NCBI GenBank assembly: GCA_019057385.1 | Contig: JAHQJS010000005.1 | Coordinates: forward strand, 352,799 to 416,798 | DNA: 64,000 bases | Source of the DNA: Candidatus Borrarchaeum weybense | GTDB lineage: Archaea; Asgardarchaeota; Sifarchaeia; Borrarchaeales; Borrarchaeaceae | Reading direction: 5' to 3' | Shown: positions 7,964-38,917 of the stretch, in pieces | How positions within the stretch are numbered: position 1 is the stretch's first letter | Layout: each line of letters begins with the position of its first letter | Position numbers and translations under genes: made by a program | The notes under the pieces: generated by a model | The model's database searches: none | What the model was told of the DNA's origin: nothing | What the model saw: only the letters and a program-made list of their open reading frames with translations

Positions 7964-8102
7964 TGAGGCGAGTTCACGCCAAGTGTAAGGGTGTCATTAT
8001 CTGAAGAGCTATTTGAATGGTTCTCAAAGAATTGTGGCCCCAACGCCTCAAGCGCCGAGGAGGGGCGCTCAATAAGTACCCAGGTTAAGGAAAGGAGTGA
8101 AC
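7964..8102 (+). ncRNA. candidate structured 5' leader RNA (multi-stem domain + GCGCC hairpin), copy 1
   Basis: P1 TGAGGCG/CGCCTCA and hairpin AGCGCC-GAGGAGG-GGCGCT. Homologous to 27673-27810(-) with compensatory changes. Confidence 0.6.
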
Positions 8103-8627
8103 ATGATAAAAGATGAGTCTAAAGAACTATTAGAGAAAACCCCAGAAAAAACGCGTTGGGAAATAGCTACAAAAACTTACACTGGATCGGTTGCAGGCTA
8201 TGATATATTTGTTGGGCAAGCTATGGGTAAGGAAAAGTGGATAGAGCTACATGATAATCTTTGGGGTGAAGGCGGTAAGATGACGTATCCACAAATTAAA
8301 GAGGCCTTCAACATCGAAGTAAAAGATGCTCCAAGTGCAGGTACCTTGGTTGGTTTAGTTGCATTACTAGGACAGGGACCTGAATATGAATGGGAAATTA
8401 CCGAGTCAACGCCAGAAAGACAAGTCTTAAGGATAACTAAATGTCCGTGGTTCAACAGATACACAGAATTTGGCTTGAAGCCCGAGGACATGATTTGTGC
8501 TGGTGGCCATATAGCATTCGTGGGAGAGGGAATCAAGGCTGTAAATCCCAAAATAAAACACACACTTACAAAAGCAATGCCATGGGGAGATTCATACTGC
8601 GAAGGGGTCTTCGAGTTAGAAGAATAG
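8097..8627 (+). CDS. V4R/ATC-hydrolase-like protein, subfamily A
   Basis: TKCPW...ICAGGH...AVNPK...GDSYCE. Confidence 0.8.
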   Translation: MNMIKDESKELLEKTPEKTRWEIATKTYTGSVAGYDIFVGQAMGKEKWIELHDNLWGEGGKMTYPQIKEAFNIEVKDAPSAGTLVGLVALLGQGPEYEWEITESTPERQVLRITKCPWFNRYTEFGLKPEDMICAGGHIAFVGEGIKAVNPKIKHTLTKAMPWGDSYCEGVFELEE

Positions 8628-8745
8628 TAAGCAGTTAAATCCTGTGTGATTTTGAACCTTATATCTTCTCCATTTTTTTTTGGAAATTTCAAAGCGCCGA
8701 GGAGGGGCGCTCAATAAGTTCCCAACTTAAAGGAAGGATGAAAAA
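8628..8745 (+). repeat. conserved intergenic spacer (T-tract + leader hairpin copy 2)
   Basis: TCTCCA-T-tract-GGAAA then AGCGCCGAGGAGGGGCGCTC at 8693. Confidence 0.85.
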
Positions 8746-9267
8746 ATGTCTAAAATGTCGAAAGAGGAATTGGAAAAGATTCCAGCTGAGCAGCGATGGG
8801 CAATAGCAGGTGCAAACTTCGTTGGAGCGTATACCGCTCTAGGAATGTTTGTTCAACCTCTCTTGGGTAAAGAAAAGATGCAAGAGATAGACAACAATCT
8901 ATGGGGTGAAGGTGGTAAAATGTCATATCCGATGATCAAAGAGGCCCTCAACATACCCGTGGAGGATGCAATAGGGGGCTATAAAGTAGTCGCGGCTGTA
9001 GCAGCTATACAAGCTGGAGGCACATTCGAGGATGAAATGATTGAGGTAACACCTGAAAGAGTTGTATGGAATACAGTCAAATGTCCGTGGTGGGACACAG
9101 CTAAACAATTCGGAGAAAAACCTGAAAACATGACGTGCCCTGGTGGTCATCAAGCAATTTGTGAAGCTGGACTTAAAGCGCTTAATCCCAATTTTACCTT
9201 TAAACTCACAAAAGCAATGCCAAATGGAGATCCCGTCTGCCAAAATGTCATCGAGTTCAAAAAATAA
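8746..9267 (+). CDS. V4R/ATC-hydrolase-like protein, subfamily A
   Basis: VKCPWW...TCPGGH...ALNP...GDPVC. Confidence 0.8.
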   Translation: MSKMSKEELEKIPAEQRWAIAGANFVGAYTALGMFVQPLLGKEKMQEIDNNLWGEGGKMSYPMIKEALNIPVEDAIGGYKVVAAVAAIQAGGTFEDEMIEVTPERVVWNTVKCPWWDTAKQFGEKPENMTCPGGHQAICEAGLKALNPNFTFKLTKAMPNGDPVCQNVIEFKK

Positions 9268-9388
9268 GCGTAAACAGCAAGTTCTTGTGCGGTCTTGAAT
9301 CTCATACTCTCAATATTTTTTTTGGAAAATGTCTACGCGCCGAGGAGGGGCGCTCTACAAATACCCAGGGTAAGGAGAGGAGGAAAAA
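9268..9388 (+). repeat. conserved intergenic spacer (leader hairpin copy 3)
   Basis: T-tract-GGAAA, then GCGCCGAGGAGGGGCGCTC at 9337. Confidence 0.85.
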
Positions 9389-9895
9389 ATGGCTGAAGAG
9401 ATTTTGAAGAAGATACCAGCGGAGAAACAATGGGCAATAGCGTCTAAAACCTTTACCACAACAGCAACAGCTATGAGCATGATGTATGGGGATGTCGTGG
9501 GCCCTGAAAAGAACAAAGAGATTTTAATTGCGTTATGGGGTGGAGGCGGTAAAAGTTCGTATCCACGAATGAAGGAAGCCTTCAACATACCAGTAGATGA
9601 TGCAATTGGAGTGGCTACTTTAGGCAGTGTTACTTCAAAAGTAAGCATGGGACCTGAACTAGAGTCCGAGTTAGTCGAGGCGGCCCCAGAAAGAGCTGTA
9701 GTTAGAGTGACGAAGTGTCCGTGGTGGGAAAGATATAAGGAGTTTGGTATAACTGAGGGAGCAATTTGTGATGCAAGTCATACAGCAAATGCTACAGAAG
9801 GGGTCAAAGCAGTTAATCCTAAGATAACGTTCAAGATGACGAAGGCATTACCAAGAGGAGATCCATACTGCGAACTGGTGTACGAGTCTAAGTAA
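9389..9895 (+). CDS. V4R/ATC-hydrolase-like protein, subfamily A
   Basis: TKCPWWE...ICDASH...AVNP...GDPYCE. Confidence 0.8.
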   Translation: MAEEILKKIPAEKQWAIASKTFTTTATAMSMMYGDVVGPEKNKEILIALWGGGGKSSYPRMKEAFNIPVDDAIGVATLGSVTSKVSMGPELESELVEAAPERAVVRVTKCPWWERYKEFGITEGAICDASHTANATEGVKAVNPKITFKMTKALPRGDPYCELVYESK

Positions 9896-36685: not shown

Positions 36686-37645
36686 TTGACGTTAGCTGTT
36701 GAAATAAAAAATCTTACGAAAATCTATCCTGGAAGGGGCATCCTAAATAAAGCACCAGCTGTAACGGCGTTAGATGATGTAAATCTAGAAATCAAGAAGG
36801 GAACAATATATGGTCTTCTAGGTCCTAATGGAGCTGGAAAAACTACCTTGATTCATATTTTAGCTGGCGTTCTCTTGCCAACCACCGGCACTGCAGAGGT
36901 CTTTGGACATGATGTCGTACGGAAGGCACGGGAGGTAAGATCTTTAAGTAATTATGGTGCTGGACAAGGCTCACTTTTTTGGAATCTTTCCCCAAAAGAG
37001 AACTTGCTTTATTATGCGAAACTTTATGGCCTTCCCAATTCTGAGGCTGTTGAAAAAATAAATAACCTATTGGAATTCTTTGGCCTGAAGGAACGAGCCA
37101 ATCTTAAAAGTGCTTATTTGTCCTCGGGGTTAAAACAGCGTGTCAAACTTATCAAAACGCTTCTCAACGACCCTAAATTATTACTGCTGGATGAACCCAC
37201 CTTAGGTCTCGATGTTGACATCGCCAGAAAAATACGTGCTTACATTCAAGAACTGTCCCATGAAAAAGAAATGACAATATTGCTCACTTCACATAATATG
37301 TACGAAGTAGATGAATTATGTGATGAAATAGCTCTTATTGATAAAGGGCGAATCGTTTCTATAGGAACTCCGGATGAACTTAAAAAGCAGGTTTCTGAGT
37401 TTGAATCCCTGGAGTTGTCCTTCTCAAACTATGATGGTGATCCTTCCTCATTCTTAGATGATCTAGTTTTGAGATCAACATTTAGAGATGGAGCACTGGT
37501 GCTTCACGTCTCTGATATTGATTCTTCAATAGATGCCATTCTTCGACGCCTGTTATCCCATAAATTTGTGATTTCCTCAATAAACACGAGACGGACAACT
37601 TTAGAGGATGTGTTTCTAAACTTAACAGGACGGGGGTTGAAGTAA
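36686..37645 (+). CDS. ABC-2 exporter ATP-binding subunit
   Basis: GPNGAGKT, LSSG, LLDEPT. Confidence 0.92.
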   Translation: MTLAVEIKNLTKIYPGRGILNKAPAVTALDDVNLEIKKGTIYGLLGPNGAGKTTLIHILAGVLLPTTGTAEVFGHDVVRKAREVRSLSNYGAGQGSLFWNLSPKENLLYYAKLYGLPNSEAVEKINNLLEFFGLKERANLKSAYLSSGLKQRVKLIKTLLNDPKLLLLDEPTLGLDVDIARKIRAYIQELSHEKEMTILLTSHNMYEVDELCDEIALIDKGRIVSIGTPDELKKQVSEFESLELSFSNYDGDPSSFLDDLVLRSTFRDGALVLHVSDIDSSIDAILRRLLSHKFVISSINTRRTTLEDVFLNLTGRGLK

Positions 37646-37646
37646 A

Positions 37647-38459
37647 ATGCTCAGAGTTTATCTTCGTCAAGTATATGGCTTCACTTACAGACAGACTCAC
37701 AATATCGCTAAAAGTCCGATTGGAATCTTTGAAATTGTAGTGTGGCCATTAGCGAGTTTATTCTCCATAGGATTTCTGGGATCTTTTGTAGACGTTTCAG
37801 CTAGCACAAACATATCTTTTGTTACATTCATTTTGATTGGACAATGCGGCTGGTCTTTTAGTTATGTTGTTCAGCAAGCCTTGAGTTATGGCCTCATGCA
37901 TTCGATGTGGAGTGGTACTCTTATCGACATGATGGCTAGCCCTGCAGATGAAAATCAGTTTATCATTGGGAATGCACTCGCAGGAGTTATTAAGGGAGTA
38001 GTAGTTCTTGCTGTCATGGGAGTCTGTAGCTTAGTTGCATTTAATGTTAACATCTTCGCCGGTGGAGTTTTTGCAGTCTTTCTAATCATATTCAGTGTCT
38101 TTCTTGCGGCAGTTTCGTTAGGCCTTATAGTTCTTATATTAATTTTCTATTTTGGCCAAGAGGCCCAGGTAACGGCGTGGACGATCACTGGCTTAACTGT
38201 CCTTTTCAGCGGCGTTTTCTACCCTGTAACAATTTTACCCCCTCTAATTAGGCCGTTAAGTTACAGCATTCCTCTTACATATGCGTTCATTGCGTGGCGA
38301 GAAATAACCCTTCAAGGTGCAAGCATGGCTGATGTATCGTTTGTACTGCTTCAAATGGGCGTTTCCAGTGTACTATGGCTCGTAATAACGTGGTCTGTTT
38401 GTCTATTCACGATAAAAAGAGCAAGGAAAATTGGAATGATTTCGCAACTTTCTGATTGA
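37647..38459 (+). CDS. ABC-2 type permease
   Basis: About six TM segments and SGVFYP..ILP...PLTY. Confidence 0.88.
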   Translation: MLRVYLRQVYGFTYRQTHNIAKSPIGIFEIVVWPLASLFSIGFLGSFVDVSASTNISFVTFILIGQCGWSFSYVVQQALSYGLMHSMWSGTLIDMMASPADENQFIIGNALAGVIKGVVVLAVMGVCSLVAFNVNIFAGGVFAVFLIIFSVFLAAVSLGLIVLILIFYFGQEAQVTAWTITGLTVLFSGVFYPVTILPPLIRPLSYSIPLTYAFIAWREITLQGASMADVSFVLLQMGVSSVLWLVITWSVCLFTIKRARKIGMISQLSD

Positions 38460-38863
38460 ATCTAGATTTATTATTATTGTTACTGAGTTATGAAAATTAA
38501 TAATCGCAAGAGATGAAAGTAAATAACACCGGTAATTATATACATAAATTTCTTATGAGTGCTAACGATACTAGGAATATGAAATCGCAATAGAGCAGGA
38601 GAATAGGGTTTTTTCAAGCGTAGATTTGCTTAACAATAACAAAGATACGTCTAAAAGAGTAATATCTCGCTAAATACAATCCCTTCCACCCATGCTCCAC
38701 GTTTGTCCCAGTTCCCCATGATTAGTCGCAACTGTTGATCCAATCGAAAAATTTTATTTTAAGAACGTCTAAAAGTATATGACCGAGTAAAGTATAAAAG
38801 TAACAAGAACGCATACATAGACTTATAAAAATTGCTCTAGATTCTCGAATCTTGATTCAATTT

Positions 38864-38917
38864 AAGTGCCAAGGAGGGGCGCAAAATAAGTGCCCAATCT
38901 AAGGGAGGGAGGACAAT
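38864..38917 (+). repeat. leader hairpin copy 9
   Basis: AAGTGCCAAGGAGGGGCGCAAAATAAGTGCCCAATCTAAGGGAGGGAGG before a non-V4R gene. Confidence 0.8.

Follow-up and report, generated by a model that had tools for sequence, protein, structure and literature searches.

A conserved hairpin-and-box leader before start codons in Asgard and Mcr-bearing archaea, probably a new control or enhancer element for protein synthesis

Introduction

The STAB-SD of Bacillus thuringiensis cryIIIA, a Shine-Dalgarno (SD)-like leader sequence, has been proposed to bind the 30S subunit via the anti-SD, stabilising the mRNA or raising initiation. The leader of phage T7 gene 10, which consists of a 5' stem-loop, an A/U-rich enhancer and an SD, is portable between genes. 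Among archaea, we know of very few cis-regulatory mRNA elements and of none that spans phyla in front of unrelated genes. Here we describe such a leader from Candidatus Borrarchaeum weybense, a member of the Asgard archaea, the closest known relatives of eukaryotes. The analysis started from a stretch of 64,000 nucleotides (nt) of contig JAHQJS010000005.1 (positions 352,799 to 416,798, forward strand; hereafter the window), in which an earlier note, made by reading the sequence, had reported a recurrent hairpin before V4R/ATC-like genes and two unrelated genes. The leader is a real, uncatalogued and structurally supported motif that is much more widespread than the window alone could show, and its most likely role is in translation initiation, exerted at the RNA level.

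Results and discussion

Architecture and copies of the leader

Nine matches to the 14-nt core, with up to three mismatches, are present in the window, at 8054, 8696, 9339, 9972 and 10605 (+), 27721, 32748 and 33383 (-), and 38868 (+). Shuffled sequences gave 0.99 matches on average, and none of 100 shuffles reached nine. In the aligned copies, a 6-bp stem (AGCGCC/GGCGCU) closes the 7-nt loop GAGGAGG and is followed, after a short, A/U-rich linker of 4-5 nt, by a box with the consensus AA(A/G)UACCCA, which was assigned as single-stranded. A purine-rich SD (e.g. GGAGG, up to AGGAGGUGA) and the start codon come next, the gap between box and SD being 5-7 nt in most copies and the total leader about 55 bases. 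About 35 nt, or roughly one ribosome footprint, separate the AGGAGG of the loop from the real SD downstream. The copies and remnants in the window are as follows.

8051-8105 (+): copy 1; hairpin at 8051-8069, box end at 8082, purine-rich SD, ATG at 8103; ATC_hydrolase-like gene at 8103-8627; 60.8 bits
8693-8748 (+): copy 2; hairpin at 8693-8711, ATG at 8746; T9 run 11 nt upstream; 68.4 bits
9336-9391 (+): copy 3; hairpin at 9336-9354, ATG at 9389; 78.5 bits
9969-10024 (+): copy 4; hairpin at 9969-9987, ATG at 10022; 80.8 bits
10602-10656 (+): copy 5; stem AAUGCC/GGCGUU, with one compensatory pair and one U.G wobble; ATG at 10654 of a gene for 124 amino acids (aa)
27670-27724 (-): copy 6; before an ATC_hydrolase-like gene at 27163-27672; 72.1 bits
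32695-32751 (-): copy 7; loop AAGGAGG, linker longer by one base, TTG start at 32697; 62 bits
33330-33386 (-): copy 8, degenerate; stem partly broken, box ACUCA, three core mismatches; MetOD1-like gene; 30.2 bits
38865-38920 (+): copy 9; U.G wobble in the stem; FMN_red flavoprotein gene at 38918-39643; TATA-like sequence about 40 nt upstream of the hairpin
40160-40205 (+): remnant lacking the hairpin; box-like sequence and SD, followed by a V4R-like paralogue; weak model match (E 0.02)
41290-41331 (+): remnant; box-like ACUCA and SD without the hairpin; recognised by eye

The core search recovered the nine sites of the earlier note to within 1-3 nt. Its description of the copy at 33383 as degenerate, the stem variants that it quoted and the two tail-only remnants (one at about 41290-41331) were also borne out.

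Seven of the nine genes behind these copies encode small ATC_hydrolase/MetOD1-like (V4R-type) proteins, assigned with marginal Pfam scores; the others encode the FMN_red flavoprotein and the 124-aa protein behind copy 5, for which no family match was obtained. A model built from the window copies was run against the entire 4.18-Mb genome and gave 12 strong matches plus a few remnants; two more V4R-like genes and one gene for a DUF3303 protein are preceded by the motif outside the window. All 12 strong copies are sense to a gene and have the start codon 24-25 nt past the box, in line with the constant orientation and near-constant spacing described from the window, and most copies in other genomes fall within a few nt of this distance. 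Between paralogues, the hairpin plus box (33-34 nt) shows a mean identity of 85%, compared with 66% for the coding DNA and 39% for the proteins, indicating that the hairpin plus box is under selection of its own and was not merely co-duplicated with the genes; the motif is, as first noticed, better conserved than the divergent proteins behind it. The box occurs almost only in motif copies and not before other genes, and hence does not represent a general upstream signal.

We considered and rejected a mobile repeat, such as a miniature inverted-repeat transposable element, and an integron attC site, because the strong copies are all sense and stand 24-25 nt before a start codon, and because the array at 8051-10656 consists of five copies for five genes, with none after the last gene. 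The random orientation by which a DNA repeat was to be recognised was thus not seen.

The motif could not be assigned to a known family, in agreement with the first impression. At the gathering score of Rfam 15, the only match in the whole window was to HEARO, away from the motif; with E values up to 1, the region 7800-11100 gave two chance-level matches, neither of which overlaps the motif; and eleven related leaders from other genomes gave no match at E values up to 0.1. A text search of the accessible literature for the core sequence returned nothing, and no published description of such a motif was found.

Covariation of the stem

In the alignment of Asgard copies, double-sided changes occur at all six pairs of the stem, compared with 1.7 pairs in shuffled alignments, and none of 500 shuffles reached six. 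An independent alignment was made from copies of a second archaeal lineage (see below), and its covariation score was likewise reached by none of 500 shuffles; the closing pair in this alignment is A-U, C-G, U-A or G.U. The fourth pair varies among G-C, U-A and C-G. A scan in which the stem positions were left free recovered a true copy with a G-C to C-G swap, and the chance matches in the same scan were non-complementary. The pairing that had been noticed among the window copies is therefore supported against shuffles.

One-sided changes in the stem are mostly sense-strand G.U wobbles, with 14 such cells compared with at most 8 unpaired ones, several of which belong to decayed copies. Variant stems stand beside consensus copies within one genome (G000, G004, G045 and G060), so co-evolution with a DNA-binding protein fails as an explanation. 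Judged from these alignments, an RNA hairpin fits better than a protein-bound DNA palindrome. A palindromic operator of a transcription factor was rejected, as the arms vary with compensation and wobbles, even within single genomes, and the loop is nearly invariant.

Distribution and downstream genes

Among 151 sampled Asgard genomes, 17 contain model matches, representing at least nine genera and at least nine families. The second group was entered through one pattern match in a metagenome-assembled genome (MAG) titled Halobacteriota: 26 of 41 relatives of this MAG carry the motif, with up to 17 matches per genome, and a sample of the phylum gave 15 positive genomes of 151. McrA is encoded in two of the five genomes of this group that were tested, and the group is an Mcr-bearing lineage, not Asgard. 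Mis-binning is possible for any single MAG; the frequency of the motif argues against it as a general explanation. Further copies were found on metagenome contigs. A scan of a collection of genome contigs gave one true match (L035), although a direct search of genomes yields dozens of copies with the exact pattern; the collection evidently lacks most of the motif-bearing genomes, so its silence says little about archaea. No motif match was found in viral contigs, leaving a viral origin without support.

More than 12 unrelated protein families are preceded by the motif in total. In other Asgard families and in the second lineage, they include surface proteins (NosD/beta-helix and PKD), enzymes (peptidases of the S15 and C1 families, penicillin amidase, alpha/beta hydrolase, di-haem peroxidase and a flavoenzyme of the old yellow enzyme type), IgGFc-binding-like and SdrD-like proteins and small or other proteins (DUF3237, DUF6789 and MIase/GYD/DUF3303-like). 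About three quarters of the motif-led genes of the second lineage have a signal-peptide-like N-terminus, as judged by eye. Outside this genus, the motif thus stands mostly before secreted or surface proteins of many unrelated families, and the link to V4R genes is a peculiarity of this genus. A regulon of V4R proteins sensing small molecules, as the earlier note had imagined, does not agree with this distribution, and its scope was too narrow in both respects, the element being specific neither to V4R/ATC-like genes nor to Asgard archaea.

In both phyla, genes for small proteins with a dimeric alpha/beta barrel (DUF3303, GYD or MIase-like) are found repeatedly after the motif (G000 C4:1009768-1010043, L016:2190-2507, L039 and L112). 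DUF3303 was also tried as a co-occurring factor; it is present in 4 of the 17 motif-positive genomes and in 41 of the 151 overall, i.e. there is no association.

Transcript context

Many copies outside tandem arrays have a canonical promoter, with a B recognition element (BRE) and TATA box, 140-210 nt upstream. Covarying leader stems follow these promoters and end 1-2 nt before the hairpin, and the same layout of promoter and leader stems was seen in this genus, in a distant Asgard family and in the second lineage. Two such long leaders are present in the window.

7850-8050 (+): long leader of copy 1; BRE/TATA at about 7850-7866, TTGTCATA repeats and an inverted repeat at 7945-7960, then a predicted multi-stem domain closing 1-2 nt before the hairpin
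27725-27900 (-): long leader of copy 6; homologous to that of copy 1, with the same promoter, operator-like repeats and covarying stems

In both this genome and a complete genome of a distant Asgard archaeon (G040), a clear SD peak is found at about -12 and no TATA peak at -27, indicating that leadered, SD-led mRNAs are the norm. From the stem covariation and the canonical promoters upstream, we infer that the element is transcribed as part of the 5' untranslated region (UTR). Distances between the hairpin and the nearest TATA box scatter broadly and show no peak, meaning that the hairpin does not regularly form the 5' end of the mRNA.

Two metatranscriptome runs were compared with positions 7850-27849. 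They yielded few contigs of read length, which cannot define transcript starts, and carry-over of DNA is possible. One read of an RNA library spans the T7 run (10584-10590) and reaches the hairpin arm at 10608. A transcript contig of a relative contains a motif copy with 66 nt upstream of it. The four array-internal copies (8693, 9336, 9969 and 10602) are each preceded by a T-run, as are most array-internal copies in relatives of the genus.

Two further features of the upstream regions were observed. At 7850-7960 (+) and 27800-27900 (-), and also in L002, three TTGTCATA repeats, which comprise the inverted repeat TTGTCATATGACAA, stand downstream of the canonical BRE/TATA. By their sequence, these repeats look like an operator at which a transcription factor would control the leading gene in each motif-led unit. 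In a distant Asgard family (L019, L055, L018, L063-L065, L026 and L033), a conserved leader of about 185 nt extends from the GAAAAATTTATATA promoter to the motif; its features include a covarying stem and invariant blocks such as GGAAATCGG and GTGAGGGGA, and the genes that follow it encode paralogous surface proteins of the NosD/beta-helix type. This leader may be a larger structured RNA.

A proposed translation-initiation leader and its alternatives

The 3' end of the 16S rRNA reads GGATCACCTCCT, to which the AGGAGG of the loop is the exact complement. The 16S 3' tail CACCTCCT is therefore complementary to a loop sequence separate from the functional SD, as in standby and STAB-SD sites. The variant loop GAGGUGG pairs with CACCUC, one register over.

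We propose that the 5' untranslated leader carries the element as an RNA module at its 3' end and that the whole would serve as an extended, portable translation-initiation region. The hairpin loop would be an exposed SD mimic pairing with the 16S rRNA 3' tail, and through it a small ribosomal subunit would be kept on standby, or a second one would be loaded at a distance of about one footprint before the real site, with the A/U-rich, enhancer-like box and then the SD following this docking hairpin. Initiation would thereby become more frequent, and the mRNA might also be shielded from 5'-to-3' decay. Such an extended translation-initiation leader with a second ribosome-docking site is, taken as a whole, the reading that we put forward tentatively; a role in translation at the RNA level is rather probable, and the specific standby or docking step is doubtful. 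The suggestion of a translational control element in the earlier note has in this way become the leading reading, being consistent with the sense orientation, the covarying hairpin and the position directly before the SD.

Several observations weigh against this proposal. The loop variants GAGUGUGG and GAAGAGU weaken the complementarity to the anti-SD, and the folding energies of the leaders are overall no better than those of shuffled sequences. The strongly conserved box is given no reader by the model, and the presence of the element in only about 10% of the genomes per phylum is odd if the ribosome alone reads it. A TATA-like box (in the second lineage, TTTATAAATA) whose end lies 24-25 nt from the start codon has the geometry of a leaderless promoter. 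One RNA-library read pair begins at 8741, 5 nt before the ATG at 8746. In addition, the T-runs should terminate transcription, so the array-internal copies need either promoters of their own or read-through.

A close rival is an operator for an RNA-binding protein with a logic like that of CsrA, in which a dimer would contact two GGA sequences, one in the loop (together with the box) and one about 30 nt further on, in the SD, and thereby repress or activate a dispersed regulon that is mainly a secretome in most lineages. Such a protein would account for a box conserved more strictly than ribosome docking would need and for downstream genes that are heterogeneous yet biased to secreted proteins; a reader present in some lineages only would also fit the lineage-restricted occurrence (17/151 and 15/151 genomes). 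However, a CsrA-family protein (PF02599) was found in none of five motif-rich genomes, with Escherichia coli, Bacillus subtilis and Thermotoga maritima positive as controls, and no other candidate protein emerged, DUF3303 not co-occurring with the motif. The near-identical sequence in two phyla would, moreover, require an equally conserved reader. We regard this operator as possible, though on balance unlikely. By analogy with CsrA, archaea of at least two phyla might share a dedicated post-transcriptional system in which another protein reads the loop, the ACCCA box and the SD, with the secretome as its regulon in most lineages and re-use for an enlarged family of small V4R-like proteins in this Asgard genus; we think of this wider scenario, too, as a minority view.

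The geometry of the box raises a second alternative, namely a promoter module acting at the DNA level, in which the box would act as BRE/TATA, the transcripts would start about 24 nt further on and have no leader or a very short one, and the GC-rich inverted repeat would be an activator site. The constant box-to-start distance in all 12 copies of this genome is as expected from such a module, and the box resembles the TATA boxes of tRNA promoters of this genome in addition to its form in the second lineage. The read pair near the ATG at 8746 is also consistent with it, as is a full-length read from a related organism that ends 6 nt inside the gene at 27672, and the T-runs before array-internal copies imply re-initiation at each gene. 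Yet the perfect SD (up to the longest form given above) between box and start codon would then stay untranscribed in a genome where SD-led mRNAs are the rule, and canonical promoters are already present upstream. Compensatory and wobble changes of the stem, even within one genome, are unexpected for a protein-bound palindrome, and the loop is more conserved than an operator spacer should be. A promoter of this kind is improbable in our estimation.

The T-runs bear also on a transcript-fate element, i.e. either a nut-like site at which RNA polymerase would be made to pass the T-run terminators, or a hairpin for processing or stability, which would set the 5' end of the mature mRNA. The layout, with a conserved single-stranded box after a hairpin, is reminiscent of boxB/boxA. 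T-runs do stand between the array genes, and one of them is crossed by an RNA-library read; several copies also have a TATA box centred 24-28 nt upstream, from which the mRNA would begin with the hairpin. Sense-strand T-runs (T6 or longer) are, however, fewer in motif-led genes than in the background (0.22 vs 0.59 per kb), antitermination needs no fixed spacing to the SD and start codon, and the broad spread of hairpin-to-TATA distances shows no peak. This explanation has little to recommend it in our view.

The earlier note had also allowed a riboswitch as one form of translational control. The element would then be a small riboswitch or serve a larger one as expression platform, and a metabolite bound by the structured leader upstream, or by the hairpin-box core itself, would change access to the SD. 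Cross-phylum sequence conservation is typical of aptamer cores, and in copies outside tandem arrays the long leaders, with their covarying stems, extend exactly up to the hairpin, but these upstream leaders differ between gene families and only the hairpin and box are constant. Anti-SD-like pyrimidine tracts just upstream of many copies can pair with the SD (mean of -9.1 kcal/mol, vs -5.6 kcal/mol in background genes), but this pairing is no better within than between copies, i.e. it is compositional and lacks specific covariation, and no alternative pairing that sequesters the SD was found. Pairing of the loop with the box has mixed support: for a preQ1-I-like H-type pseudoknot in the register G7-C1/G6-C2, about four variant events support the pairing and about five contradict it, and L071 breaks the U5/A3 association. 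As the downstream genes also have no common metabolic theme, a riboswitch is very improbable.

The remaining candidates can be dismissed briefly. No complement of the box occurs in the last 1,561 nt of the 16S gene, no similar stretches that would suggest rRNA mimicry were found in the rRNA operon region, a trans-acting small RNA complementary to the box was represented by chance-level 9-mers only, with no extended match outside the antisense strand of the motif itself, and a short upstream open reading frame (ORF) from the conserved AUGA of some Asgard linkers has inconsistent frames and lengths.

Other features of the window and the genome

The HEARO (IscB omega-RNA) match is full-length (39658-39873, +; 129.7 bits) and directly follows the flavoprotein gene. 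It overlaps a single ORF of 80 aa or more, which at 85 aa (39783-40040) is too short for IscB; by its sequence, the match looks like a protein-less omega-RNA element. In one sediment run, the contig depth at about 10950-11195 is about ten-fold above that of the flanks (131.9 in its own bin vs 21 in the adjoining bins), and contig ends cluster at 10951/10992 and 11101/11195. A mobile element present in multiple copies appears to have inserted here, behind the fifth cassette of the array.

Genome-wide, a second repeated upstream element of about 80 nt was observed, which ends in GACTTGAGAGTACCTATCTATGTG and stands 22 or 40 nt before the ATG of at least eight ORFs. It probably represents the ends of IS200/IS605-type elements or their omega-RNAs. 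Contig C1 (G000) has a tight tRNA cluster and runs of N, and the contamination estimate for the genome is 7%; part of this contig may belong to another organism.

Implications

A compact and strongly conserved leader offers a handle on the control of translation initiation or mRNA fate in Asgard and Mcr-bearing archaea. For annotation, the motif would mark a co-controlled gene set, mostly of secreted and surface proteins, in uncultured organisms, and it might be used as a portable expression part for archaeal genetics. Should it be an unusual promoter instead, the compensatory changes in the stem would still need explaining. The element is probably a new control or enhancer element for protein synthesis.

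Comparison with known systems

Several Asgard families (e.g. L010, L019, L026 and L044) have GA 5' of the hairpin and N-A-U-G-A 3' of it, which is the signature of a kink-turn, the L7Ae-binding motif, with the hairpin as the canonical stem. In contrast, the copies in the window and most copies of the second lineage lack the GA pairs, and a non-canonical stem is not evident. For the window copies, in which UAA precedes the stem and UCU-AC or UCA-AU follows it, a kink-turn was therefore rejected.

An archaeal BRE/TATA with an upstream activator site shares with the element an A/T-rich, TATA-like octamer ending 24-25 nt before the start and a GC-rich inverted repeat directly upstream. It differs in that an SD lies between box and start codon in the element, the stem is compensatory and tolerates wobbles, and canonical promoters are present further upstream. 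CsrA/RsmA sites in bacterial 5' UTRs likewise present one GGA in the loop of a hairpin and another, tens of nt downstream, within the SD, and are dispersed before unrelated genes, whereas the element described here is archaeal, has an invariant ACCCA box in addition and is far more conserved in sequence.

The order of parts, i.e. a stable hairpin, an A/U-rich single-stranded enhancer, a strong SD and the start codon, is the same as in the phage T7 gene 10 leader, but there is no sequence relationship between the two, and no viral copies of the archaeal element were found. In STAB-SD and standby sites, as in the element, an SD-like leader sequence does not position the start codon. The SD mimic described here, recognised from sequence alone, differs from these in being placed in the loop of a covarying hairpin, at a fixed distance from the real SD, and in belonging to a family that is conserved across two archaeal phyla.

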